A DNA stretch of 64,000 nt from Anaerolineae bacterium (lineage in GTDB: Bacteria > Chloroflexota > Anaerolineae > VGOG01), in contig JBAWAP010000323.1 of the NCBI GenBank assembly GCA_049589355.1, forward strand, positions 24,539 through 88,538, read 5' to 3'. Both the position numbers and the translations under genes were made by a program. The notes below the pieces were generated by a model. It saw only the letters and a program-made list of their open reading frames with translations, made no database searches and was not told where the DNA came from. This document shows positions 1 to 51,497 of this stretch, one piece after another; positions within the stretch are counted from its first letter, which is position 1, and each line of letters opens with the position of its first letter.

Positions 1-2807
<2,807 letters not shown>

Positions 2808-2835
2808 CACAATAAGAGGCCACGTTGGAGGGGAG

Positions 2836-2872
2836 GGCGGTGATCGAGTTTAGTTCGGTCACCGCCTTTTTT
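2836..2872 (+). terminator. Rho-independent terminator after rpoC
   Basis: GGCGGTGA...TCACCGCC hairpin followed by TTTTTT. Confidence 0.6.
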
Positions 2873-2968
2873 CTTAGGCGACAGCATCTGACAGCGAACT
2901 CAGGGATTGAACGAATCCGTGCTGAAGCGCCCCAATTCGTTCAATCCATAGATTCGTTGTCATATTGT

Positions 2969-2997
2969 TTGACAAAAGCCTGGAAATGGCATATAGT
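2969..2997 (+). promoter_or_regulatory. sigma70-type promoter (TTGACA-17 nt-TATAGT)
   Basis: Consensus -35 at 2969-2974, 17-nt spacer, -10 at 2992-2997, about 60 nt upstream of the CSD gene. Confidence 0.6.
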
Positions 2998-3057
2998 AGA
3001 GGCACAGCTTACCCTGCCAGGAGGTCAAATCCTGGTTTGATATGGCAAGGAGGCAAA

Positions 3058-3423
3058 ATGTATTATTCAGACAAGATGCTCACTTGTGAGCAATGCGGAG
3101 CTCAATTTGTGTTCACCGTCACCGAACAGCGAGAAATGGCCGAGCGAGGGGCCGAGTTGTTCGAGCCCAAGTTCTGCCCTCGCTGCCGCGCTGCCGAAGA
3201 GCCTGGAGTTAAGCTCATTGGACGGGTGAAATGGTTCGACGCCATCAAAGGCTGGGGGTTCATTACTAAGGCCAACGGTGAGGACATCTTCGTTCACCGC
3301 ACCGGCATCGAGGGCTACGGTACCCTGCAAGACGGCCAGGAGGTGGAGTTCCAGATCGAACAAACCCCCAAAGGGCCCGCAGCGGTCCAGGTAGTCCCTC
3401 TGCCGACGGATGAGGAGAGTTAA
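3058..3423 (+). CDS. Cold-shock-domain protein with N-terminal zinc-ribbon
   Basis: C-terminal half is a canonical CSD (GRVKWFDAIKGWGFITKANGEDIFVH). N-terminus has CEQCG...CPRCR. Start set to ATG 3058 behind AAGGAGG, because the longer ORF from 2965 runs through the promoter. Confidence 0.85.
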   Translation: MYYSDKMLTCEQCGAQFVFTVTEQREMAERGAELFEPKFCPRCRAAEEPGVKLIGRVKWFDAIKGWGFITKANGEDIFVHRTGIEGYGTLQDGQEVEFQIEQTPKGPAAVQVVPLPTDEES

Positions 3424-3432
3424 GAACAACAG

Positions 3433-4860
3433 ATGCTGCGTACTAAGATCGTTTGTACCATCGGGCCAGCCAGCCATGCCCCTGAGATGCTGCGAGAGCT
3501 GATGCTGGCCGGCATGGACGTGGCTCGTCTGAACTTCTCCCACGGCGACCAATCCTACCACGGCGGGAACATCGAGCGCATCCGCGCCGTGGCTAGCGAA
3601 GTGGGGAAACCTATAGCCATCCTGACCGACCTCCAGGGGCCCAAGCTGCGGGTTGGGGAGATGGAGGGGGAAGGGGTCCTTTTGGTTTCGGGGGAGAAGG
3701 TGAGCCTGACTACACGGCCCATTGTAGGTCACGAGGCCTCTGGCGAGTTGCCCGTCCAGTATGCCCACCTTCCCCGAGACGTGGAACCCGGCGATCGCAT
3801 CCTCATTGACGACGGGCTGCTGGAGCTGGAGGTGCTCTCCACCGGGGAGACGGACATCGCCTGTCAGGTGATCACCGGAGGTTTACTCCAGACCAACAAG
3901 GGAATGAACCTGCCCCGCGCCTCTCACGCCATTCCGGCCATCACCGATAAGGACCGCCGAGACTTGTGCTTTGTGTTGGAGCAGCAAGTGGACTGGGTTG
4001 CCCTCTCCTTTGTGCGCCACTCAGGCGAGATACAGGAGCTGAAGGAGATGATTCGGGAGCTCTCAACCTCCGGCAGCCCCGTGCCTGTGGTGGCCAAAAT
4101 CGAGAAACCGGAGGCTGTGGACGACATTGATGCGATCATCGAGGCGGCGGACGCGATCATGGTGGCCCGTGGCGATTTGGGGATCGAGACCTCGCCAGAG
4201 GCTGTGCCCATAGTGCAGAAGATGATCATTGCCAAATGCAACGCTGTGGGCAAGCCGGTAATTACCGCCACCCAGATGTTGGATTCGATGATCCATAACC
4301 CGCGGCCTACCAGGGCTGAAGCCAGCGACGTGGCCAATGCCATCCTGGATGGCACCGATGCTATCATGCTCTCTGGTGAGACGGCGGTGGGTAAGTATCC
4401 CCTCGAATCCGTGCGGACGATGGTCAGGATCGCCGAGGAGGCTGAGCGGGGTGGAATGGAAGGCCTGGCTAGGCCCCGTCCGCCCCTTGGCCCGGTGACC
4501 TCCATTGCCGACGCCGTCAGCCATGCCGCCCGTGAGACGGCCTGTGATCTGGGGGCAGCGGCGATCATCACCCCCACTATCTCAGGCCACACTGCTCAGG
4601 TCATCTCTAAATATCGTCCTCGCTGCTCCATCATCGCCGTTACACCCAGCCCCAGGGTTCAGTGCCAGTTGGCCCTCTACTGGGGGGTTCGTCCGCTGCT
4701 GTCGAGGCGCGCGGAGAGCACCGATGAAATAATCGCTGGTGCGGTCAGGGCTGCTCAAGAGCATGGATTGGTAAAGCCAGGCGACGTGGTAGTGGTCACT
4801 GCCGGAGCGGCGAGCAGCGGCCCTGGCACGACGGACATCATGAAGGTGCAAGTCGTCTAG
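3433..4860 (+). CDS. pyk: Pyruvate kinase
   Basis: MLRTKIVCTIGPAS, NFSHG, MVARGDLG motifs. Full-length 475 aa. Confidence 0.95.
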   Translation: MLRTKIVCTIGPASHAPEMLRELMLAGMDVARLNFSHGDQSYHGGNIERIRAVASEVGKPIAILTDLQGPKLRVGEMEGEGVLLVSGEKVSLTTRPIVGHEASGELPVQYAHLPRDVEPGDRILIDDGLLELEVLSTGETDIACQVITGGLLQTNKGMNLPRASHAIPAITDKDRRDLCFVLEQQVDWVALSFVRHSGEIQELKEMIRELSTSGSPVPVVAKIEKPEAVDDIDAIIEAADAIMVARGDLGIETSPEAVPIVQKMIIAKCNAVGKPVITATQMLDSMIHNPRPTRAEASDVANAILDGTDAIMLSGETAVGKYPLESVRTMVRIAEEAERGGMEGLARPRPPLGPVTSIADAVSHAARETACDLGAAAIITPTISGHTAQVISKYRPRCSIIAVTPSPRVQCQLALYWGVRPLLSRRAESTDEIIAGAVRAAQEHGLVKPGDVVVVTAGAASSGPGTTDIMKVQVV

Positions 4861-4868
4861 GTCCTTGT

Positions 4869-4897
4869 TTGACAACGCTTCCACCCCGTGTTACAAT
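4869..4897 (+). promoter_or_regulatory. sigma70-type promoter (TTGACA-17 nt-TACAAT) for the tRNA gene
   Basis: -35 at 4869-4874 and -10 at 4892-4897, 11 nt before the tRNA 5' end. Confidence 0.65.
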
Positions 4898-4908
4898 GAA
4901 TTACCCGC

Positions 4909-4985
4909 GCCCCTGTAGCTCAATTGGAGAGAGCGTCTGACTTCGAATCAGCAGGCTGCAGGTTCGAGTCCTGCCAGGGGCGCCA
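4909..4985 (+). tRNA. tRNA-Arg (anticodon UCG), CCA encoded
   Basis: Hand-folded 77-nt cloverleaf. Acceptor GCCCCTG/CAGGGGC, D arm GCTC-AATTGGAGA-GAGC, anticodon loop CTTCGAA, T arm GCAGG-TTCGAGT-CCTGC, discriminator G plus CCA. One T:C mismatch at the base of the anticodon stem. Confidence 0.85.
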
Positions 4986-5029
4986 AAAGCTTCAACTCGC
5001 CCAAAACTCACCTTGCTTACAGAGATTTA

Positions 5030-5749
5030 ATGATGGAAGATTCTGGAGTGATTGAAGAGGCAGAACGGGTCATGGTCATCACGGCTCACCCCGACGATGC
5101 AGAGTTCAGCGTGGCCGGTGCGGTGGCCAAGTGGGCCCGGGAAGGCAAGACTGTCATCTACGTGATCTGCACTGACGGCAGCCGTGGCAGTAATGACCCC
5201 CAAGTGGAACCGGAACGTATGGTCGCCATTCGAAGAGCTGAGCAAGACGCGGCCGCCAGGCTTTTGGGAGTGGAGGAAATCGTCTATCTGGGTTACGAGG
5301 ACGGCACTCTTCGGCCCACCCTGGCCCTACGTCGGGATCTCACCCGGGCCATCCGCCGCTACCGGCCGGACGTCGTCGTTTGCCCAGACCCCACCTTCCG
5401 CTACGGCGATGGTTACCTGAATCACCCTGACCACCGCGCCGCTGGCGATGCTGCCCTGGATGCCGTCTTCCCTTCGGCCAGCACCCGCTACATCTTCCCA
5501 GAACTCCTGGCCGAGGGGTTGGAACCCCACACCGTGCGAGAGGTCTTACTCCGAGGAGCACCCTCACGGAACCTCTGGGTGGACATCAGCGACACCATCG
5601 GTCTCAAGATCGCAGCCCTCAAGAAGCACGAAAGTCAAGTAAGCCATATTCAGGATTTGGAGGAAGGGATCCGAGCCTGGGCCCGGGAGGAGGCGACGGG
5701 GCGGGATATGACTTACGCCGAGTCTTTCAAGCGCATCATCCTGGGTTGA
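5030..5749 (+). CDS. PIG-L/LmbE-family N-acetylglucosaminyl deacetylase
   Basis: VITAHPDDAEF and HPDH zinc-deacetylase motifs. 239 aa. Confidence 0.8.
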   Translation: MMEDSGVIEEAERVMVITAHPDDAEFSVAGAVAKWAREGKTVIYVICTDGSRGSNDPQVEPERMVAIRRAEQDAAARLLGVEEIVYLGYEDGTLRPTLALRRDLTRAIRRYRPDVVVCPDPTFRYGDGYLNHPDHRAAGDAALDAVFPSASTRYIFPELLAEGLEPHTVREVLLRGAPSRNLWVDISDTIGLKIAALKKHESQVSHIQDLEEGIRAWAREEATGRDMTYAESFKRIILG

Positions 5750-7184: not shown

Positions 7185-7203
7185 TAAGCAAGGAGGAACC
7201 CAA

Positions 7204-8736
7204 ATGTGCAAAAAACGAATACTCTTCATCGTGACACTGTTACTGGCATTGGCTCTGGGGGTGAGCGCGGCCAACGGTGCTCCGCCGGCCCAGGGGGAAT
7301 TGACCTACACAGTTAAGCTAGGTGACAACCTCTGGACCCTGGCGGAGAAGTACCTGGGCAGCGGCCCGGCCTATTGGGCCATCGTCGGCGCTACCAACGC
7401 CACATATAAGGATGATCCGAGCTTCGCCTACATCGCAAACCCCAACTTGATCCATCCCGGTTGGAAGCTCCTCATCCCCAGCGCCGAGGAAGCGGAAGCG
7501 TACATTGCGCTCGCCAAGCCCGCTCCTGTCACTCTCCTCTGGGCTTTCTGGGGCAGCCCAACGGAGGCGGAAACCCATAGGAAGGTGGCAGACGCTTTTA
7601 CGGCCGAACATCCCCATATCACAATCGAGACCATGGTCGAGCCATGGAGCGACTACTTCACCAAGGTCCAGACCCTTTGGGCCAGCGGTGACGCGTCGGT
7701 GATTCCGGACGTGCTCTTCCTGTGGCCTACGCCTCGCTACGCCGCCGATGGCGTGCTGGAAAACCTCGACCCCTGGATTAAGAAAACCGGCTATGACCTG
7801 AGCGACTACTGGCCGGCACTGCTGGAATCGGCCATGTACAACGGCAGCGTCTACGGCCTGCCCCGCGACATCAGCGTGGAGGCGCTCTACTACAACAAAG
7901 ACATCTTCGACGAGGCTGGCGTGTCGTATCCCACCGATGACTGGACCTGGGACGACTTCCTGGCGGCCGCCGAGAAGCTGACCGTGGTCGAGGCCAGTGG
8001 TCGGGTGAAGCGCTATGCCCTGGGCATGGAGGGCGGCAAGTATCAGTTGTGGATCGGCCAAAACCGGGGCGGCATTCTGGACGACATGCGCAACCCATCC
8101 AAATGTACCTTGACCGAACCGGCGGCCATGCAGGCCATCAAGTTCTTCGCCGACCTGATGAACAACAACTACGCCATGCGTGATGCCGACCTCAGCCAGG
8201 CCGGTGGCGATGCTGCCGTCTTCCAGAGCGGCCAGGTTGCCATGATCATCCAGAACTCCAGCCGGGTGTCGGCTTTTAACCAGGCTGGCCTGAACTATGA
8301 CGTGGCCATGGTGCCCATCCCCAAGGGCGGCCAGCGGTCGGCCTCCGCCGGCGGCGCAGCCTGGGTGATGAGCAGCGCCAGTGACAACAAGGAGGCAGCC
8401 TGGACTTTCCTGAGCTGGCTGCAGAGCAAGGACGGCGGTCAACACCTCTATACCGCCTCCGGGGAGATCTTCCCGGCCCTCAAGTCCACCGCTCGCTCCG
8501 ACGACTTCCTCAAATCCGGCCAGCCGCCCAAGAATCGCCAGGTCTTCCTCACCGAGGGCGAGAACGCCAAGGTGGGACGGTTTGGCTACTTCCCCGAGTG
8601 GGACGAACTGGAGGAGTCCATCATCCTGCCTGGCCTGCAGCGCATCTGGGCCGGGGAGGCTACCCCCGAACAAGCTGTGCCGGAGATCTGCAAACAGGTA
8701 GACGCCTTCCTGAAGGAGCACGGCTATCCAAAGTAA
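7204..8736 (+). CDS. ABC sugar transporter substrate-binding protein with N-terminal LysM domain
   Basis: ATG 7204 follows AAGGAGG. Signal peptide MCKKRILFIVTLLLALALGVSA. LysM module (YTVKLGDNLWTLAEKY...IHPGWKLLIP) followed by a family-1 SBP body. Confidence 0.85.
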   Translation: MCKKRILFIVTLLLALALGVSAANGAPPAQGELTYTVKLGDNLWTLAEKYLGSGPAYWAIVGATNATYKDDPSFAYIANPNLIHPGWKLLIPSAEEAEAYIALAKPAPVTLLWAFWGSPTEAETHRKVADAFTAEHPHITIETMVEPWSDYFTKVQTLWASGDASVIPDVLFLWPTPRYAADGVLENLDPWIKKTGYDLSDYWPALLESAMYNGSVYGLPRDISVEALYYNKDIFDEAGVSYPTDDWTWDDFLAAAEKLTVVEASGRVKRYALGMEGGKYQLWIGQNRGGILDDMRNPSKCTLTEPAAMQAIKFFADLMNNNYAMRDADLSQAGGDAAVFQSGQVAMIIQNSSRVSAFNQAGLNYDVAMVPIPKGGQRSASAGGAAWVMSSASDNKEAAWTFLSWLQSKDGGQHLYTASGEIFPALKSTARSDDFLKSGQPPKNRQVFLTEGENAKVGRFGYFPEWDELEESIILPGLQRIWAGEATPEQAVPEICKQVDAFLKEHGYPK

Positions 8737-24525: not shown

Positions 24526-24870
24526 ATGAACATTGAAGATTACCACTTTGGCCGGATCGTAATTGACGGCAGGCTCTACACATCCGATGTCATCGTTTTT
24601 CCCGATCGCGTCAAGGATGGCTGGTGGCGAAACGAGGGCCACGAGCTATGCCCAGCCGACCTGTGGGAGGTCGTCCAAGAGAAGCCGGAAGTGCTGGTGG
24701 TGGGCACTGGCCACTCGGGCTTGATGAGGGTCCTGCCGAAAGCGGAGGAGTATCTGGAGCAACAGGGCATCAAGTTGATGGTCGAGAGGACGGCCGAAGC
24801 TTGCCAAACGTTCAATCGGCTCTGCAGCTCTGGGGAGAAGGTTGTGGCCGTCCTTCATTTGACCTGTTGA
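24526..24870 (+). CDS. Mth938-domain (DUF498) protein
   Basis: 114 aa. YHFGRIVIDGRLYTSDVIV...PEVLVVGTGHSG pattern. Confidence 0.65.
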   Translation: MNIEDYHFGRIVIDGRLYTSDVIVFPDRVKDGWWRNEGHELCPADLWEVVQEKPEVLVVGTGHSGLMRVLPKAEEYLEQQGIKLMVERTAEACQTFNRLCSSGEKVVAVLHLTC

Positions 24871-42575: not shown

Positions 42576-42760
42576 GAAAATACCCTGCTGTGTTCGTGAT
42601 GCGTAGCGAGAGTTTTGAGCCAACACCTAATGTAAAGGGAATTGGAACTCTGGAGGGGATGCGTTAGCCATAATAGGCGAGGCAGAACCAATAGGTAGAT
42701 TCCCATCTGCGAAAGCAGGTTCAAAACACTGGTAGCACACGGCACAGCGGGGAGTCTTGT
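42576..42760 (+). ncRNA. Candidate 6S-like structured RNA (alternatively a cis-regulatory leader of mgsA)
   Basis: No credible ORF. CCCTGCTGTG (42583-42592) pairs with CACAGCGGGG (42743-52). AGTTTTGAGCC pairs with GGTTCAAAAC, and GGGAAT pairs with ATTCCC. An unpaired central region of about 15/14 nt remains. The unit sits between a promoter and a terminator. Confidence 0.45.
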
Positions 42761-44047: not shown

Positions 44048-44148
44048 GTCATTGCGAGGAACGCAGTGACGAAGCAATCTCTAGCCTCCAGCACGGAGGG
44101 GATTGCTTCGCGGAGTTTACCCTGAGGCATCGAAGGGCTCGCAATGAC
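44048..44148. repeat. 101-nt nested palindromic element (GTCATTGCGAG...CGAAGCAATC type)
   Basis: GTCATTGCGAG/CTCGCAATGAC outer stem, CGAAGCAATC/GATTGCTTCG middle stem, CCTCC-AGCAC-GGAGG tip. Confidence 0.85.
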
Positions 44149-44167
44149 AATCCGGGGGAGGCCAGCG

Positions 44168-44737
44168 ATGAAGGCCGTGGACGAGATTTTGGCTGCTATT
44201 TCCGCCTTGAGCGAAGCCGAAAAGAGAGAGCTTTTTGAAAAGCTTGCAACTATCGAGGAATCCGAGGCCCTAGGTGGATCGTCTGAAGCTCGAAGACCCA
44301 AGTTGGCCTTCGATGCTGGTCAATTGGAAGGCCAGCCCGATTATGTGTTGGTCTTCGATGGGGGAAGCCTTGGCAATCCGGGCCCTGGCTATGGCAGCTA
44401 CGCCTTGATCAGGGCCAGCAATGGCCAGAAGCGGGTGGTGCGGCTTGATTTCGGCGGGGCAATGACCAACAACGAGGCGGAGTACGACACGCTGATCGCT
44501 GGCCTGAGTGACCTGGTCCAGAGACTAGCGGAGGCCAAACAGAGCCCCTCGGAATTCTCGATTGAAGTGACGGGCGATAGCTACTTAGTTATCAATCAGG
44601 TGAGCGGAGTCTGGAAGGCTAAAGATGAGCGGATGAGGGCACGGCGTAACCAGGTACGGGAGCTGCTTAATCGTTTCGCCGGTTACCGGTTAGGGATTCA
44701 ACCCCGCCAGGAGAGCGTGAGAGTATTGGGGCATTAA
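44168..44737 (+). CDS. RNase HI-type ribonuclease with a short N-terminal helical extension
   Basis: FDGGSLGNPGPGYGSY...NNEAEYDTLIAGL...GDSYLVINQ motifs. Start set to ATG 44168, because the earlier ATG lies inside the palindromic element. Confidence 0.75.
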   Translation: MKAVDEILAAISALSEAEKRELFEKLATIEESEALGGSSEARRPKLAFDAGQLEGQPDYVLVFDGGSLGNPGPGYGSYALIRASNGQKRVVRLDFGGAMTNNEAEYDTLIAGLSDLVQRLAEAKQSPSEFSIEVTGDSYLVINQVSGVWKAKDERMRARRNQVRELLNRFAGYRLGIQPRQESVRVLGH

Positions 44738-44738
44738 T

Positions 44739-44767
44739 TTGACAAATCGCCGTTTCTGTGTTATATT
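44739..44767 (+). promoter_or_regulatory. sigma70-type promoter (TTGACA-17 nt-TATATT) of the T-box leader
   Basis: Read directly. Confidence 0.6.
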
Positions 44768-44774
44768 CTCTTAA

Positions 44775-45108
44775 AAGCGATGATGGAGACGAGTAGGTGA
44801 GGGGTAACGCCCAGAGAGTCCAGGTGAGGTGGGAACTGGATGCGGGAACCTCGCCGAAAATCCCTCCGGAGCTGTCAGCCGAATGGTTGGTAAATTGGTA
44901 GATTGGTAAACTGGTAGGTTGGTGACAAATGAACCAATTTACCAGTTTACCAGTTTCCCAATGTACCAACCTAGTAGACCTGACCGGGTTCGTCCTCCGT
45001 TACGCGGACGGGGGTATGAACACGTACCCCACAGAGTGGGCGGCAATGCCAAGTAGGGTGGTACCGCGGGAGTTTGAGCTCTCGTCCCTTAGGGATGAGG
45101 GTTTTTTG
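44775..45108 (+). promoter_or_regulatory. T-box riboswitch leader with terminator
   Basis: Stem I base AAGCGATGATGGAGACGAGTAG (K-turn/S-turn), AGAGAG bulge, and T-box sequence AAGTAGGGTGGTACCGCGGG (45051-45070). Terminator CTCGTCCC-TTA-GGGATGAG plus TTTTTT (45081-45107). Confidence 0.88.
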
Positions 45109-45126
45109 TTTACGGGTGAAGAGGTC

Positions 45127-45600
45127 ATGTCGCAGGTGGTCATTCGTCGGGCAACCCCGGACGACGTAGGCGGAATCTTACCTCTCTGGAACGAGCTGAT
45201 GGATTATCACGCAGCGCTGGATGCGCGGTTTCAGCCTGCGCCCGGTGCAGAGGAAAACTGGGTAGATATCCTCCTCGATTTGCTTCAGGATGATGATGCC
45301 TGTGTCCTGGTGGCCGATGCTGGGGGCAAGCTGGTCGGCTTCATCATTGGCCTGGGGCGGGAAAACCTTCCGGTTCTGCTGCCGTCTAAATATGGCCTGG
45401 TCACTGACATCTGCGTGGACCCAGGGTGGCGCCGACAAGGCATCGGCGGCCGCCTCTTCGAGGCCCTAAAGGTCTGGTTTAGAGCGAAGGGACTCTTTGT
45501 CATCCAGCTCAGTGTGGCCCACCGCAACCCCGTCTCCCAGGCCTTCTGGCGGGCGATGGGATGCGAGGATTTCATGGATCGCTTGTGGTTTGAGCTTTAG
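45127..45600 (+). CDS. GNAT-family N-acetyltransferase
   Basis: RRQGIGGRLF acetyl-CoA motif. 157 aa from ATG 45127, because the longer ORF from 44929 runs through the T-box leader. Confidence 0.8.
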   Translation: MSQVVIRRATPDDVGGILPLWNELMDYHAALDARFQPAPGAEENWVDILLDLLQDDDACVLVADAGGKLVGFIIGLGRENLPVLLPSKYGLVTDICVDPGWRRQGIGGRLFEALKVWFRAKGLFVIQLSVAHRNPVSQAFWRAMGCEDFMDRLWFEL

Positions 45601-45668
45601 AAACTCTCTTGAAGGTGCTCCAAGCGGACGCTAGTCCACCGCGAGCTCGGCAAAAACGGAGGTGAATC

Positions 45669-46379
45669 GTGACCGAGTTGCTCTATCTGACCGATTGCTA
45701 TTTGAGGGAGTTCGACGCCACGGTGGTGGCGGCTGAGGGCGACCAGGTGGCCCTGGATCGCACGGCCTTCTATCCCGGCGGCGGAGGGCAGCCGGCCGAT
45801 GGGGGCAGGATGCTGTGGGATAACGGTGAGTCCCGGGTCATCAAGGTCAAGAAGCAGGAAGACCAAGTTTGGCACGGGCTGGACGTCGAGCCGCCGCCTG
45901 TTGGCACGCCGGTCAGGGGTGTGTTGGACTGGGAGCACCGCTACAAGCTAATGCGCACCCACACGGCGCTGCACATCCTGTGCGGCGTTATCTGGCGCGA
46001 CTACGGGGCCCTGGTGACGGGAGGGAACATGGAGCCATTGGCGGCTCGGATGGACTTCGAGCTGGAGCACATGAGCGCCGACTTCGCCCAGGAGGTGGAG
46101 GAGAAGATCAACGCTGAGGTAGCCGCCGCCCGGCCGGTCAAAATCTGCATCTTGCCTCGGGAGGAGGCCTTCCAAATCCCTGATCTCATCCGCACCAAGA
46201 TCAACCTTCTGCCGGAGAGCATCCGGGAGGTGCGCGTCGTGGAGATCGAGGGTCTCGACATCCAGGCCGACGGCGGCACCCACGTGGCCAACACCCGCGA
46301 GGTGGGGACGATCCACGTGGTGGGTCACGAGAGCAAAGGCCGCATCAACAAGCGGCTGCGGATTGCGTTGGGAGAGTGA
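45669..46379 (+). CDS. AlaX-type aminoacyl-tRNA trans-editing deacylase homolog
   Basis: HTALH (HxxxH) present, followed by DGGTH where CxxxH is expected. N-terminal beta-barrel plus editing-core layout. 236 aa with a GTG start. Confidence 0.75.
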   Translation: MTELLYLTDCYLREFDATVVAAEGDQVALDRTAFYPGGGGQPADGGRMLWDNGESRVIKVKKQEDQVWHGLDVEPPPVGTPVRGVLDWEHRYKLMRTHTALHILCGVIWRDYGALVTGGNMEPLAARMDFELEHMSADFAQEVEEKINAEVAAARPVKICILPREEAFQIPDLIRTKINLLPESIREVRVVEIEGLDIQADGGTHVANTREVGTIHVVGHESKGRINKRLRIALGE

Positions 46380-46438
46380 TGATGGAAGGGGGCTTCACTC
46401 GTTGGCTTATCAAGTCATTGAGAATGGCTCAGCCATAA

Positions 46439-46531
46439 GGTGCAACGCACTTGTTCACACGATTTCAATGGCTCGCTTGACCAGATTGCACTTCGAATCC
46501 GCTTGATTCTGTGGCAAAAGTGCGTTGCACC
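46439..46531. repeat. 93-nt element closed by a perfect 14-bp inverted repeat
   Basis: GGTGCAACGCACTT (46439-46452) and AAGTGCGTTGCACC (46518-46531) flank 65 nt. Lies in the AlaX-ileS spacer. Confidence 0.75.
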
Positions 46532-46586
46532 TGAGCAGATACGTCATTGACTCGTCAACTCATCTCTGATCGCAGGAGGAACAATC

Positions 46587-49500
46587 ATGTTCAAAGAAGT
46601 ACCTAGCAAAGTCAACTTTCCTGAGATGGAGGAGGGCGTCCTCCACTTCTGGAAAGAGAACAAAATCTTCGAGAAGAGCCTGGAGGTGCGCCAGGATGCC
46701 CCTCGCTACGTCTTCTATGAGGGGCCTCCCACGGCCAATGGCCTGCCCGGAACTCACCACGTGCTGGCCCGGGTCTTCAAGGATCTGTTCCCCCGCTATA
46801 AGACAATGCGTGGCTACTTTGTGCTGAGGAAGGGGGGCTGGGACACGCATGGCCTTCCCGTGGAGCTGGAGGTCGAGGAGGAGCTAAATCTCAACAGCAA
46901 ACAGGCCATTGAGGACTACGGCGTAGCCGAGTTTAACGCCCAGTGCCGGGAGAGCGTCTTTCGCTACGTTAAGGAGTGGGAGGAACTGACCGACCGCATC
47001 GGCTTCTGGATTGACATGGAGGATCCCTATGTCACCCTGAAGAATGAATACATCGAATCCGTGTGGTGGATCCTCAAGCAGTTCTCGGATAAAGACCTCA
47101 TCTACCAAGGCTATAGGGTCGTGCCTTATTGTCCGCGCTGCGGCACGCCCCTGTCAGATCACGAGGTGGCTCTAGGCTACGAAGAGGCCGAAGACCCATC
47201 CATCTACGTCAAGTTCCCCCTGAGGGATGAGCCCGGGACCTACTTTCTAGTCTGGACTACCACTCCTTGGACCCTGCCTGGCAACGTGGCCTTGGCCGTC
47301 CATCCCCAGGTCGAGTATGTCATGGTGGAACAGGAAAGGGAAGGCGAGAAGGAGCGGCTGATCCTGGCCAAAGAGTTGCTGGGCGAGGTACTGGAGGGCG
47401 CCTACGAGGTTGTACGAAGCGTGCCAGGTAGGGAGTTGGTTGGGATGCACTATCAGCCCCTGTTCACCTTCTTACCGGTGGAGAAGGACTGTTGCTATGT
47501 AGTCCCTGGCGACTTCGTGACCACCAAGGAGGGCACGGGCATCGTGCACATTGCCCCGGCCTTCGGTGCAGAGGACCTGGAGGTGGGCCAGGATTATGAC
47601 CTGCCTGTGCTACATACCGTTGACCTGCGCGGTGCTTTCATTGACGAGGTCACCCCCTGGCGAGGACTCTTTGTCAAAGACGCCGACCCCCTGATCATCG
47701 AGGATTTGGAGGGTCGCGGACTGATGTACAAGGTGGGGACTTACCGCCACGTCTACCCTTTCTGCTGGCGGTGCGAGACGCCTCTTTTATATTACGCCAA
47801 GGCTACCTGGTACATTGAAACCACCCGTTACCGGGATGAGCTTGTGAATCTCAATCGCCAGATCAATTGGTACCCGGAGCACATCCGCGATGGCCGCTTC
47901 GGCAACTGGTTGGAAAACAACGTAGACTGGGCCCTGGGCCGCGAGCGCTATTGGGGAACGCCCTTGCCTATCTGGGTTTGCGAGGAGTGCAGGCGGCAGG
48001 AGTGCATCGGGAGCGTCGAGGAACTGCAATCCAAGGTTACAGGTTCCAAGTTCCAGGTTCCGGGTTCTGATGAAAACCTGCAACCTGCAACCTGGAACCT
48101 CGAACAATTGGATCTCCACCGTCCATATATTGACCAAGTTACTTACCTCTGTCCAGACTGCGGTGGTGCAATGCGGCGTGTGCCTGAGGTCATAGATGCC
48201 TGGTTTGACTCAGGGTCTATGCCTGTAGCTCAGTGGCACTACCCCTTCGCCAATCGGGAGATGTTCGAGGAACAGTTCCCGGCCGATTTCATCTGCGAGG
48301 CCGTGGATCAGACCAGAGGGTGGTTCTATAGCTTGCACGCTATCTCCACCCTGCTGTTCAACGAGCCCTGTTACAGAAACTGTGTCTGCCTGGGTTTGGT
48401 CCTGGACGCCGAGGGCGAGAAGATGTCCAAGTCCAAAGGCAACGTGGTAGATCCCTGGACGGTTGTGGATGCGCACGGTGCCGATGCCCTGCGCTGGTAC
48501 CTGTATACCGCCACGCCGCCAGGCAACGATCGCCGCTTCTCCGTTGAGCTGGTGGGCGACGTAATCCGAACTTTCATGCTGACCTTGTGGAATGTGTACT
48601 CTTTCTTCGTGACCTATGCCAACATTGATGGCTGGCAACCAAGCGGTAGATTCGTAACCGGTAAATTAGTGAATTCGGATGTAGACGAGTCTACGAATCC
48701 CGAATTTACGAATCCCGAATCCACGAATCCCGAGTTTACGAGTCTACCCGCCCTTGATCGCTGGATCCTCTCAGAACTACATCTCCTTATCCAGTGTGTC
48801 ACCAATGCTCTGGAAAGCTACGACGTGACTGGAGCGGCCCGACCTTTCCAGCGCTTCGTTGATGACCTCTCCAATTGGTATGTGCGTCGCAGCCGACGAC
48901 GCTTCTGGAAGGGCGAGGAGGACGAGGACAAGGCGACCGCCTACTCTACCCTCTACGAGTGCCTGACCACCCTGGCCAAGTTGCTGGCCCCGTTCATGCC
49001 CTTCATCGCCGAGGAGATGTACCAGAACCTGGTGAGGAGTGTTGACGGGACAGCGCCGGAAAGCGTCCATCTCTGCGACTACCCCCAAGCCCGCGAGGAG
49101 GTCATAGACCAGGAGCTGGTGGAGGATACGCGGCTGGTCATGCGCCTGGTGAGCCTGGGGCACGGAGCCCGCAACCAGGCCGGGCTCAAACTGCGCCAAC
49201 CCCTGGCCCAGGCCCTGTTCAGGGTGCGGAGCGAAAGCGAGGCCGAGTCCCTGCGCCGTCTGGCCGATCAGGTACTGGATGAGCTTAACGTTAGGGAATT
49301 GGTCCTCTTGGAGGATGCCGGCCAAGTGGTTGACTACCGCGTAACCCCTGTGTCGCGTCTCTTGGGCAGCAGGTATGGTGCTCTCTTCCCCAAGATCCGG
49401 ACAGCTTTGGCCAAGCTGGATCACGCTGAGCTGGCCCGGCACGTGCAGGCTGGCGAGAGCATCGCTCTGGAGGTCGAAGGGCAGACTGTTGACCTTCTGC

Positions 49501-49868
49501 CTGAGGAGTTGGAAGTGCGAACCGAGGCTAAAGAGGGCTACGCTGTAGTCGAGGAGGCTGGCTACCTGGCGGCCATCAGCACTACTCTAGATGAGGATCT
49601 GATCAAAGAAGGCCTGGCCCGGGAGCTGGTGCGGCGCATCCAGACCATGCGCAAGGAGGCTGGCTTCCGCATCGAAGATCGCATCACCACCTACTACCAG
49701 GCTGGCCCGGCCCTGTGGGAGGTGGTGGAGAACCTCGGCCAGTACATCAAGGGAGAGACGCTCTCCACAAAGTTGATCGAAGGTGAGCCGCCAGCCGAGG
49801 CCCATGCTCAGACCTTCGAAATCGAGGGTGAGGAGATCACCTTGGGCCTGGTAAGGTTTGAGCTTTGA
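46587..49868 (+). CDS. ileS: Isoleucyl-tRNA synthetase (type 2 architecture) with two repeat-encoded inserts
   Basis: PTANGLPGTHHVLAR (HIGH region), KMSKSKGN, CP1 editing domain. 1093 aa. Confidence 0.95.
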   Translation: MFKEVPSKVNFPEMEEGVLHFWKENKIFEKSLEVRQDAPRYVFYEGPPTANGLPGTHHVLARVFKDLFPRYKTMRGYFVLRKGGWDTHGLPVELEVEEELNLNSKQAIEDYGVAEFNAQCRESVFRYVKEWEELTDRIGFWIDMEDPYVTLKNEYIESVWWILKQFSDKDLIYQGYRVVPYCPRCGTPLSDHEVALGYEEAEDPSIYVKFPLRDEPGTYFLVWTTTPWTLPGNVALAVHPQVEYVMVEQEREGEKERLILAKELLGEVLEGAYEVVRSVPGRELVGMHYQPLFTFLPVEKDCCYVVPGDFVTTKEGTGIVHIAPAFGAEDLEVGQDYDLPVLHTVDLRGAFIDEVTPWRGLFVKDADPLIIEDLEGRGLMYKVGTYRHVYPFCWRCETPLLYYAKATWYIETTRYRDELVNLNRQINWYPEHIRDGRFGNWLENNVDWALGRERYWGTPLPIWVCEECRRQECIGSVEELQSKVTGSKFQVPGSDENLQPATWNLEQLDLHRPYIDQVTYLCPDCGGAMRRVPEVIDAWFDSGSMPVAQWHYPFANREMFEEQFPADFICEAVDQTRGWFYSLHAISTLLFNEPCYRNCVCLGLVLDAEGEKMSKSKGNVVDPWTVVDAHGADALRWYLYTATPPGNDRRFSVELVGDVIRTFMLTLWNVYSFFVTYANIDGWQPSGRFVTGKLVNSDVDESTNPEFTNPESTNPEFTSLPALDRWILSELHLLIQCVTNALESYDVTGAARPFQRFVDDLSNWYVRRSRRRFWKGEEDEDKATAYSTLYECLTTLAKLLAPFMPFIAEEMYQNLVRSVDGTAPESVHLCDYPQAREEVIDQELVEDTRLVMRLVSLGHGARNQAGLKLRQPLAQALFRVRSESEAESLRRLADQVLDELNVRELVLLEDAGQVVDYRVTPVSRLLGSRYGALFPKIRTALAKLDHAELARHVQAGESIALEVEGQTVDLLPEELEVRTEAKEGYAVVEEAGYLAAISTTLDEDLIKEGLARELVRRIQTMRKEAGFRIEDRITTYYQAGPALWEVVENLGQYIKGETLSTKLIEGEPPAEAHAQTFEIEGEEITLGLVRFEL
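48033..48105. repeat. Heptamer hairpin inside ileS (AGGTTCC units facing GGAACCT/GCAACCT units)
   Basis: AAGGTTACAGGTTCCAAGTTCCAGGTTCCGGGTTC...GAAAACCTGCAACCTGCAACCTGGAACCTCGAAC. Translated as KVTGSKFQVPGSDENLQPATWNLE. Confidence 0.85.
48645..48748. repeat. Heptamer hairpin inside ileS (ACGAATC/CCGAATT units)
   Basis: GGTAGATTCGTAA...TTACGAGTCTACC outer stem (12/13) and inner palindrome GTAGAC-GA-GTCTAC. Translated as GRFVTGKLVNSDVDESTNPEFTNPESTNPEFTSLP. Confidence 0.85.
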
Positions 49869-49963: not shown

Positions 49964-50308
49964 GTGATGGGTAGGGCTGATGAATCGTTCAGAAAGCGGC
50001 TCGAAGAGGAGCGCAGAAGCCTGATAGCACAACTGGAGCGGTTGGGTGTGACGGAGCAGGAAAACCCTGGCTACAGCACCCACATAGCCGATGATGCTAC
50101 CGAGGTTTACGAAAACGCTAAGAACCACGCATTACGTCAGAATCTACAGCGTCTCCTGGGCCGAGTGAACGATGCCCTGACGAAATTTGATAAAGGCACC
50201 TATGGGCTGTGCGATGACTGCGGCGGAAGTATAGATCGGGCACGTTTGAAGGCTCTTCCTTACGCCACCCTGTGCATCCAGTGCCAGCAGCAGCGCGAGA
50301 GATCATAG
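49964..50308 (+). CDS. DksA/TraR-family C4 zinc-finger protein
   Basis: CDDCGGSIDRARLKALPYATLCIQC. 114 aa. Confidence 0.8.
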   Translation: MMGRADESFRKRLEEERRSLIAQLERLGVTEQENPGYSTHIADDATEVYENAKNHALRQNLQRLLGRVNDALTKFDKGTYGLCDDCGGSIDRARLKALPYATLCIQCQQQRERS

Positions 50309-50367
50309 AGAACCTGTACCGAGCCTGTCGAAGAGGGGGAGTTTACCTTTTGCTTCGTGAGAAGTGG

Positions 50368-50859
50368 ATGAGGTTCCTCTTGCCAGGGGTCGCCATTCTC
50401 ACCCTGGTGATTGACCAAATCAGCAAGCGGGTGGTGATGACCGGCCTGAGGCTAGGCGAGTCCTGGAATCCCATGGCTGCTCTAGAGCATTGGGTGAGCC
50501 TGACTTACGTGACTAACACGGGGGCCGCCTTCGGTCTGTTTCCCGATCACGGGGTTCTGTTCATGATCATCGCCATGGCGGTGGTAGCGGTCATTGTCTT
50601 CTACTACCGCTACTTGCCGGGCGATCGGTGGTTGATTCAGGCTAGCCTGGGGCTGCAGTTGGGCGGAGCTCTGGGCAACTTGCTGGATCGTCTGTGCTAT
50701 GGCCGCGTCATAGACTTTATTGACTTCAAGATCTGGCCCATCTTCAACCTGGCCGACAGTGCCGTCGTGGTGGGAGTGGTGATACTGGCCTATCATCTCC
50801 TACGAGGTGAGAGCTTCCATGCTAAAGGTTCGGAGGTACCCAGCAAATTCAATCTGTGA
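50368..50859 (+). CDS. lspA: Lipoprotein signal peptidase (signal peptidase II)
   Basis: DQISK, NTGAAFG and FNLADS motifs. Start set to ATG 50368 (start uncertain). Confidence 0.85.
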   Translation: MRFLLPGVAILTLVIDQISKRVVMTGLRLGESWNPMAALEHWVSLTYVTNTGAAFGLFPDHGVLFMIIAMAVVAVIVFYYRYLPGDRWLIQASLGLQLGGALGNLLDRLCYGRVIDFIDFKIWPIFNLADSAVVVGVVILAYHLLRGESFHAKGSEVPSKFNL

Positions 50860-50912
50860 TGCCTCTTTGTATGGGCTGATGGAGGTTCATCAGGAGTTAA
50901 GCATACGCAATT

Positions 50913-51497
50913 ATGAATAAGGAGAGGGATACGAGCCCCTCTAACATGAGACGGGGTATTATTGTCTCGTTGTTGATAGCCGCGCTAGTTGTGTTAGCTG
51001 ACCAATTAACTAAGTCTCTGATCATTAGGTACTTGGATTGGGGGGAGACTTGGAACCCAATCCCATCTTTGAGATGGTTGGTCAATCTTACGCCCGTAAT
51101 TAACGAGGGCGGGGTTTGCGGCTATTTTCAAGGCTCTGGGTTGCGTTTCATCATAGTTGGTATTGTTGTTATTGGAGTCATGCCCATCTTATGGCGCTCT
51201 TTGCCCGTCAATCGAGCTTTGATAAGAGTGAGTCTTGGTCTGCTATTGGCAGGTGCAGTAGGAAACCTCCTCGATCGCTGGCGCTTTGGTTACGTCATTG
51301 ATTTTATTTCCGTTGAGTCAATATCTTGGCCTGCTTTTAACATCGCCGATAGTGCTAATGTAATAGGAACCTTAATTCTCGGCTATTATCTGCTCCATGA
51401 GCAGGAAGAAGAGAAGGGAGAGGGAGCACAGCTCAGAGCATCGTGGAAATTCATCGTGCTGGCGTTGGGAGTAGGGCTTTTGGCATTCTACTTTTGA
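50913..51497 (+). CDS. Second signal peptidase II paralog (low GC)
   Basis: ADQLTKSLI, GNLLDRWRFGYVIDFI and FNIADSA motifs. The NTGAAFG motif is replaced by NEGGVCGYF. GC is visibly lower than in lspA. Confidence 0.75.
   Translation: MNKERDTSPSNMRRGIIVSLLIAALVVLADQLTKSLIIRYLDWGETWNPIPSLRWLVNLTPVINEGGVCGYFQGSGLRFIIVGIVVIGVMPILWRSLPVNRALIRVSLGLLLAGAVGNLLDRWRFGYVIDFISVESISWPAFNIADSANVIGTLILGYYLLHEQEEEKGEGAQLRASWKFIVLALGVGLLAFYF

Follow-up and report, generated by a model that had tools for sequence, protein, structure and literature searches.

Why does a tRNA-sensing riboswitch stand directly in front of an acetyltransferase gene? The question is posed by a locus of an Anaerolineae bacterium from the phylum Chloroflexota (assembly GCA_049589355.1, contig JBAWAP010000323.1), which we studied within a stretch of 64,000 nucleotides (positions 24,539 to 88,538 of the forward strand of the contig; referred to here as the window). 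A preliminary description of this DNA had reported a T-box leader followed by a gene for a GNAT acetyltransferase, a gene for a homolog of the AlaX trans-editing proteins, and ileS, the gene for isoleucyl-tRNA synthetase (IleRS), and had suggested that these might together form an operon for the quality control or modification of aminoacyl-tRNA. We conclude instead that this is an ordinary isoleucine T-box ileS operon which carries two lineage-specific, co-induced accessory genes, and we give this reading a probability of roughly 0.8. The T-box, its specificity for isoleucine, and the order of the genes and its conservation are established in what follows. The RNA and its mechanism are textbook; what stands out is the gene arrangement, which is shared by about 40 species of Anaerolineae. 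Coordinates are those of the window or, for relatives, of the locus named (relatives' loci carry L numbers), and refer to the + strand unless stated otherwise.

The leader occupies positions 44771-45092 and matches the Rfam T-box model RF00230 over its full length (model positions 1-219) with 97.3 bits and an E-value of 3.9e-20. This is barely above the gathering score of 93 bits because an 86-nt insertion sits in the loop of stem II. The Rfam scan covered the whole window and returned three matches at or above the gathering score, only one of which is a T-box. In the covariance-model alignment all of the core elements find their place: stem I with a GA motif and AGUA on its 5' side, an AGAGA bulge and a GGUG distal loop; the GAA...specifier loop; stem II with its insert; stem IIA/B; stem III; and the antiterminator, which includes the T-box sequence (AGGGTGGTACCGCGGGAG / AGGGUGGUACCGCGGGAG; 45055-45072) and its UGGU bulge, the partner of the tRNA 3' end (ACCA). 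An intrinsic terminator follows at 45076-45111, consisting of a 13-pair stem (45076-45104) and then TTTTTTGTTT. The 3' arm of the antiterminator, CUCGUCCCUU, is also the 5' arm of the terminator and, because this arm is common to both, the two structures are mutually exclusive. Upstream of the leader lies a sigma-70-type promoter (TTGACA-17-TATATT with an extended -10 TG; 44739-44767) that matches the consensus at 11 of 12 positions, and an equivalent promoter precedes the T-box in the related loci L018 and L022. Promoter, full-length leader and terminator therefore all lie where the preliminary description had placed them, and its stem I alignment, made by hand, agrees with that of the model. 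On these features we classify the element as a class-I transcriptional T-box attenuator, for which antitermination by uncharged tRNA is predicted. The insertion in stem II corresponds to an 87-nt repeat hairpin at the tip of the stem (44885-44971), whose 39-nt arms are 85% complementary, and a different repeat hairpin is found at the same site in L002 and L062. The hairpin of the window is made of octamer-like repeats (GGTAAATT / GGTAGATT and so on).

The identity of the tRNA had been left ambiguous, with AAU and AUC as the two candidate specifiers. On its 3' side the specifier loop consists of GAAAAUCC (44856-44863); the CUCC behind it pairs with GGAG, and AUC (Ile) lies within the loop at 44860-44862. 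We compared 42 leaders, comprising that of the window and those of 41 related loci. The loop was readable in 37 of them, and in every one of these AUC is present; for the other five it was not located within the stretch of upstream sequence that was inspected. The readable loops follow the pattern [G/A][A/G]A[A/G]AUC[C/A], such that the codon is constant and its neighbours vary (A or G before it, C or A after it), while the closing helix covaries (GGAG/CUCC versus GGAA/UUCC). Moreover, counted from the 3' end of the bulge, AUC fills positions 2-4, where the standard TBDB rule places the specifier. A UGGU bulge is found in 41 of the 42 leaders, and the tRNA discriminator is therefore expected to be A. 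This fits tRNA-Ile, which has A73, whereas bacterial tRNA-Asn has G73. We take the switch to read tRNA-Ile because AUC is constant among variable neighbours and because the bulge fits A73, and the comparison of leaders thus settles the ambiguity. The alternative specifier, AAU (Asn), was rejected: L022 and L041 would then read GAU, AUC is constant, and UGGU implies A73.

The arrangement is not peculiar to this genome. With a profile of the GNAT we recovered 61 loci encoding its relatives from contigs representing one genome per species, and determined their layouts by tblastn with the window proteins and by Rfam scans. A T-box motif lies directly upstream of the GNAT gene in 41 of the 61 loci. 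An IleRS gene lies downstream in nearly all T-box loci for which the contig is long enough, and a near-full-length AlaXM gene is present in 31. The order T-box > GNAT > (AlaXM) > ileS is thus found in 41 other Chloroflexota genomes, mostly from Anaerolineae, with T-box > GNAT > AlaXM > ileS as the commonest layout, and the possibility raised at the outset, that the linkage would prove to be unconserved elsewhere, does not hold. Among the relatives, leaders that reach the gathering score do so with 94.7-118.3 bits, while that of L035 falls below it (77.4 bits). By Rfam, every locus tested has one T-box, always at the head of the unit and never directly before ileS. As had been stated for the window, no second T-box precedes ileS there or in the tested relatives, including those with intervening genes (at the gathering score, and at E <= 0.01). 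The ileS genes themselves belong to two lineages that are about 40% identical, both with a DUF5915 domain, and keep their position in the unit. The T-box-linked GNATs group together in a maximum-likelihood tree, in one clade of 42 rows with support of 97/96; it holds 40 T-box-linked rows, and L035 and L060 fall just outside it. All clade members for which a phylum is given are Chloroflexota, and two records have none. They have diverged to 36-50% identity, yet GNAT remains the first gene behind the switch. Distant GNAT homologs in other phyla lack the T-box and stand among unrelated genes, and we found no common theme in the gene neighbourhoods of the outgroups.

A single clade member, L012, lacks a T-box. 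Its GNAT gene overlaps the start of leuA (762 bits, NF002086), which we read from the sequence as an independent link of this GNAT to branched-chain amino-acid metabolism. At positions 1300-3793 of this low-GC relative we observed a promoter, a 48-codon Leu-rich open reading frame (ORF), a terminator hairpin (~1562-1600), GNAT, and leuA, which encodes 2-isopropylmalate synthase. It is plausible that this leader may be a leader-peptide attenuator controlling GNAT-leuA.

The first gene after the switch (45127-45600) encodes the GNAT. The length of 157 aa given in the preliminary description stands, whereas the start coordinate of 45128 does not, the ATG being at 45127. Membership of the GNAT superfamily is supported by the Pfam profile PF00583 (Acetyltransf_1; 58.1 bits against a cut-off of 20.7, E 1.3e-15), by the acetyl-CoA motif RRQGIGG, and by the fold of an AlphaFold2 model (pLDDT 93.4, pTM 0.88), which reaches TM-scores of up to 0.85. 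The nearest folds are BH1408 (function unknown), AAC(6')-Ig/Ih/Iy, the polyamine acetyltransferase DpA, AAC(3)-I, SSAT and a thialysine acetyltransferase, with TM-scores of ~0.7-0.85 at 17-25% identity. Within this range, BH1408 (PDB 4e0a), AAC(6')-I and DpA share the single-domain GNAT fold at 0.79-0.85, and SSAT2 does so at 0.77. Profile searches of the PDB and NCBIfam give a similar mix, plus RimI, ArsN1 and phosphinothricin (PPT) acetyltransferases. As well as the acetyl-CoA motif, the protein shares with such small-molecule GNATs an acidic character (pI 4.83, and 4.5-6.5 in most single-domain orthologs). By profile and model it resembles an N-acetyltransferase of small molecules, and it does not pass the tests for a toxin that acetylates tRNA, which are described further below. 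A fused double GNAT is encoded in six loci (L034, L037, L038, L041, L046 and L048), and the double-GNAT form tops a profile search of 1.84 billion representatives. The longest profile matches (315-333 aa) among the 150 best of 37,094 are also double GNATs, and none of these 150 is a GNAT-IleRS fusion.

The second gene (45669-46379) encodes an AlaXM-type editing-domain protein of 236 aa. It begins 68 nt after the GNAT stop codon, as the preliminary description had it, and matches NCBIfam NF040865 with 300.3 bits, a marginal pass of the equivalog cut-off of 300. The protein has much in common with known AlaXM proteins (Pyrococcus horikoshii PH0108, PDB 2e1b; PDB 9iuw), namely its length, its two-domain layout, the Gly-rich FYPGGGGQP motif, the HxxxH motif (intact as HTALH) and GGTH. 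It differs from them in being controlled by tRNA-Ile and not tRNA-Ala, and in its second zinc motif, which reads DGGTH: Asp201 (GAC, 46269-46271) takes the place of the zinc-ligand Cys, such that of the two zinc motifs of the AlaRS/ThrRS editing fold HxxxH is present and CxxxH is not. Across the related loci, DGGTH is found in 30 of 31 AlaXM orthologs and HTA[LM]H in all 31. In contrast, a Cys occupies the equivalent site, as CGGTH or CCGVH, in five homologs in the PDB, including three archaeal AlaRS (2ztg, 3wqy and 2zze), the AlaXM-like 9iuw, and 3kew; the sixth, 2e1b, aligned only over residues 1-113, outside the Asp201 site. These alignments identify the exchange of Cys for Asp as a fixed departure from a family-defining feature, and its fixation in 30 of the 31 orthologs suggests a specialised AlaXM subfamily. 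Because Asp is able to ligate zinc, the variant may well keep the predicted deacylase activity.

The third gene, ileS (46587-49868), encodes an IleRS of 1093 aa. It scores 960 bits against TIGR00392, 924 bits against MupA (below the exception cut-off) and 158 bits against PF19302, and its best PDB match is the Thermus thermophilus IleRS (1ile). The equivalog score, the MupA/MupB-type match and the C-terminal DUF5915 domain assign it to the IleRS2 type. The product also contains a repeat-like in-frame insert (…TGKLVNSDVDESTNPEFTNPESTNPEFTSLP…, ~48645-48750). As described previously, the gene lies 207 nt behind alaXM (spacer 46380-46586) with no obvious terminator between them: a scan from the T-box terminator to the end of ileS found no intergenic promoter-like or terminator-like site on the + strand. 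The corresponding spacers in close relatives measure roughly 20-95 nt, with ~15-25 nt in L005, L008, L021 and L034. Read-through to alaXM and ileS is inferred from these two observations, the lack of intergenic sites in the scan and the short spacers of the relatives, and co-transcription of GNAT, alaXM and ileS is the simplest reading of the sequence.

Taken together, the locus would work as follows. When tRNA-Ile is charged, the terminator at 45076-45111 would form and transcription would halt before the first gene. When uncharged tRNA-Ile accumulates, pairing of the UGGU bulge with A73-CCA would stabilise the antiterminator, and RNA polymerase would then enter the polycistronic unit of GNAT, alaXM and ileS. 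The core purpose of the switch would be the usual homeostatic control of isoleucyl-tRNA synthetase. GNAT and AlaXM would be Anaerolineae accessory genes which, having been kept inside the transcription unit across a deep clade, should be induced together with ileS whenever charging of tRNA-Ile falls. As to what the accessory proteins do, our view is tentative, and we hold it with rather less than even confidence: the GNAT would be an acetyl-CoA-dependent N-acetyltransferase for a small amine or amino-acid-like compound, and the Asp-variant AlaXM would remain an aminoacyl-tRNA deacylase. One can speculate that a failure of isoleucine charging would make this compound harmful or abundant, and that it is, for example, an antimetabolite of isoleucine, a near-cognate amino acid or an inhibitor of IleRS. 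That the pair has a specifically isoleucine-related role of some kind is plausible, if somewhat doubtful. A stronger version, in which both would be dedicated factors of isoleucyl-tRNA synthesis induced by uncharged tRNA-Ile, strikes us as unlikely. In such a scheme N-acetylation by the GNAT may render a small amine harmless, be it a near-cognate amino acid, an antimetabolite of isoleucine or an aminoacyl-adenylate mimic that targets IleRS, and AlaXM may be a re-tooled deacylase that clears tRNA mischarged under isoleucine scarcity.

Several observations weigh against this overall reading. The GNAT reaches the cut-off of no curated GNAT subfamily among the NCBIfam profiles, such that its substrate class is one of resemblance only, and an invariant Trp (in AFWRAMG) occupies the usual position of the general-acid Tyr; in both respects, as in its low identity to them, it differs from the small-molecule GNATs discussed above. 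The spacer before ileS contains a strong hairpin and ~185 unique nt, in which a weak terminator, a promoter that departs from the consensus or a processing site could go unnoticed. Five loci (L011, L023, L027, L032 and L039) read T-box > GNAT > ileS with no AlaXM. Conversely, three Anaerolineae loci found via AlaXM homologs (L064 4718-9406, L065 4722-9357 and L066 90-4725) read T-box (AUC) > AlaXM > NUDIX > ileS with no GNAT. Each of the two genes is therefore dispensable in some relatives, and for this reason the simplest reading is that of an ordinary ileS T-box with accessory genes.

The core of the unit has close counterparts among known systems. The ileS genes of Bacillus subtilis and Staphylococcus aureus are examples of class I T-box control. 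Compared with such switches, the RNA described here has the same stem I with GA motif, AG bulge and distal loop, the same AUC specifier loop, stems II, IIA/B and III, the UGGU bulge, and the same competing terminator and antiterminator, with ileS in the unit. It differs in the 87-nt repeat hairpin in stem II and in the presence of GNAT and AlaXM between switch and ileS, an arrangement that is specific to Anaerolineae-type Chloroflexota. We found no T-box controlling a GNAT or an AlaX-type protein described in the searchable literature. Control of ileS by T-boxes is known in Firmicutes, Actinobacteria, Deinococcus and Dehalococcoides (PMC2494555).

Of the alternatives, the one that survives best is pure hitch-hiking: GNAT and AlaXM would have landed between T-box and ileS in an early Anaerolineae ancestor and been kept there by inertia, with functions (a generic acetyltransferase and ordinary Ser/Gly-tRNA-Ala editing) that are unrelated to isoleucine. 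We give this a substantial minority share of our confidence. The loss of GNAT or of AlaXM in relatives whose T-box and ileS are intact is what such a history would produce, and a T-box directly governing ileS is known from other Chloroflexota (Dehalococcoides, PMC2494555). In addition, the slot between the switch and ileS gathers genes with no evident relation to one another: a Fic gene in L002, L003, L014, L060, L062 and L063; in L017 and L028, a PIN-domain gene that is reversed and lies next to a small ORF without any family match; the NUDIX gene of L064-L066; a sugar nucleotidyltransferase gene in L035 and L060; a GxxExxY protein gene in L023; and a reversed ilvE, encoding branched-chain aminotransferase, in L018, L022, L024, L029 and L030. 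Passive retention fits less well with the constancy of GNAT as first gene behind the switch throughout so divergent a clade, with the pairing of the L012 ortholog with leuA behind another attenuator-like leader, and with the fixed Cys-to-Asp exchange in AlaXM, which suggests specialisation.

A second alternative concerns the reach of the switch, which might control GNAT and alaXM alone while ileS uses a promoter of its own in the 207-nt spacer. This spacer is about ten times as long as those of the closest relatives; nothing comparable to its central ~185 nt turned up in any of the loci, such that they are confined to the window genome; and it contains a perfect 15-bp inverted repeat (46438-46452 / 46518-46532) with a 65-nt loop and no T-run. 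In several relatives, genes on the opposite strand intervene between the accessory genes and ileS. The scan of the spacer, however, shows neither a promoter-like site nor a T-run terminator, and two of the loci with intervening genes point the other way on inspection. In L018 and L022 the reversed ilvE (7193-8245 and 4573-5661, respectively, both on the - strand) has a - strand promoter of its own, its stop codon lies 2-17 nt from that of the gene converging on it, and the gap contains no terminator. Ahead of ileS there is neither a promoter nor a terminator on the + strand, where the T-box promoter is the only strong one. The T-box transcript may thus reach ileS in these loci by running antisense through ilvE, and we consider separate transcription of ileS unlikely. 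What is seen in L018 and L022 speaks against taking the loci with reversed ilvE or PIN genes as proof that the T-box serves GNAT alone. As to the origin of the spacer, both of its ends match close relatives, and it keeps the first ~10 and last ~25 bases of the Fic gene that is resident at this site in L002, L003, L062 and L063. Replacement or deletion of a gene may have left it behind as a scar. That it is a decayed Fic gene is a weak proposal, since only the extreme ends match and an internal 30-aa resemblance has an E-value of 0.92.

A third alternative, an inducible defence of IleRS in which the GNAT would N-acetylate an IleRS-directed inhibitor or an isoleucine antimetabolite, is in our judgement distinctly unlikely. 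Its logic is that inhibition of IleRS would raise uncharged tRNA-Ile, and thereby switch on both a detoxifying enzyme and more of the target. MccE and RimL provide the model, acting in this way on processed microcin C and on aminoacyl-adenylate analogs. The closest folds and profiles of the GNAT belong to enzymes that modify antibiotics, polyamines or amino-acid analogs, its acidity is what one would expect if the substrates were cationic, and its homolog in Chloroflexia outgroups follows an MFS transporter gene at a distance of 4 nt. On the other hand, the GNAT has no match to PF13302 (RimJ/RimL), and neither MccE nor RimL is among its 60 best PDB matches, which makes membership of their family less likely, though not an analogous activity. 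The synthetase itself provides a further hint, as its class-I signature is GTHH (46749-46760) and not HxGH; the aligned motif is HVGH in T. thermophilus IleRS and GVHH in an engineered Priestia megaterium IleRS2 mutant (8c8w). In IleRS2 enzymes a G/AXHH motif raises the Ki for mupirocin by up to 1000-fold and is tied to resistance, yet it is found in about half of all IleRS2 sequences and is hence not special here (Brkic et al.; PMC10485003). Mupirocin, furthermore, has no amine to acetylate. Among the loci studied, GXHH is found in 14 of 15 GNAT-adjacent IleRS of the window's lineage, and as GVHH in the one member read of the second IleRS lineage (L018), while HxGH is found in L019 and, as HVGH, in the GNAT-less L064-L066. 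Because the sample is small and phylogenetically non-independent, we use this distribution only as context.

The original suggestion of an aminoacyl-tRNA modification or quality-control module, in which the GNAT acetylates charged or mischarged tRNA (for example Ile-tRNA-Ile, as ItaT does) and the AlaX-like protein deacylates the product or mischarged tRNA-Ile, would explain why a GNAT, an aminoacyl-tRNA deacylase homolog and a synthetase stand together behind a tRNA sensor with conserved linkage, and the altered ligand in the AlaXM active site could mean a changed specificity, but we regard it as highly improbable given that acetylating Ile-tRNA during isoleucine starvation would worsen the starvation, that IleRS retains its own CP1 editing motifs (WTTTPWT), that some relatives have only one of the two, GNAT or AlaXM, and that the GNAT has a pI of 4.8 where a basic tRNA-binding surface would be expected. 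The analogy with tRNA-acetylating GNAT toxins, on which that suggestion had leaned, breaks down in other respects as well. Such toxins exist, ItaT acting on Ile-tRNA-Ile (PMC7367177), and they share with our protein a GNAT fold of similar size. However, no antitoxin gene adjoins the GNAT, which has the T-box leader upstream and, downstream, a 68-nt spacer without ORFs followed by AlaXM; TacT, AtaT and ItaT are not among its 60 best PDB profile matches or its 50 best fold matches; and the gene is chromosomal, vertically inherited and T-box-led. The physical joining of a GNAT to IleRS does have a precedent in the NCBIfam family NF040702 ('isoleucine--tRNA ligase, N-acetyltransferase domain-containing'), which the order GNAT > ileS echoes. 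The GNAT described here has no match to that model at E <= 0.05 and the IleRS proteins of these loci contain no GNAT domain, so it is a different GNAT.

Around the operon, a 6S RNA (RF00013, 74.4 bits; 42579-42757) lies between aspS and mgsA, and in L002, L014, L018, L022, L029, L062, L064 and L065 a 6S RNA is found ~80-1200 nt upstream of the T-box promoter. A gene for an RNase H-like protein of 197 aa (RVT_3 / RNase H; 44144-44737) ends 2 nt before the T-box promoter. On the far side of ileS, two tandem signal peptidase II (LspA-like) ORFs (50272-51497) lie downstream of a DksA/TraR-type zinc-finger gene, and only the first of the two has clear tblastn counterparts in relatives. The closest relatives (L001-L007, L015 and L062) show synteny over the whole order aspS - 6S - mgsA - metallo-beta-lactamase-fold - RNase H-like - T-box operon - dksA-like - lspA.

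T-box regulons are used to assign functions to genes, and a gene behind an isoleucine T-box is expected to aid the supply or the charging of isoleucine. Here, an uncharacterised GNAT clade and an AlaX-type protein with an altered ligand are found behind such a switch in dozens of Anaerolineae species. Should the two genes be passengers only, they would provide a clean case in which the space between a riboswitch and its target has filled up with genes, and a caution for annotation that is based on regulons. Should their substrates instead prove to be related to isoleucine, the GNAT would gain a testable function and the operon would reveal a new accessory activity of an aminoacyl-tRNA synthetase, either detoxification or trans-editing, that is coupled to the charging of tRNA-Ile.

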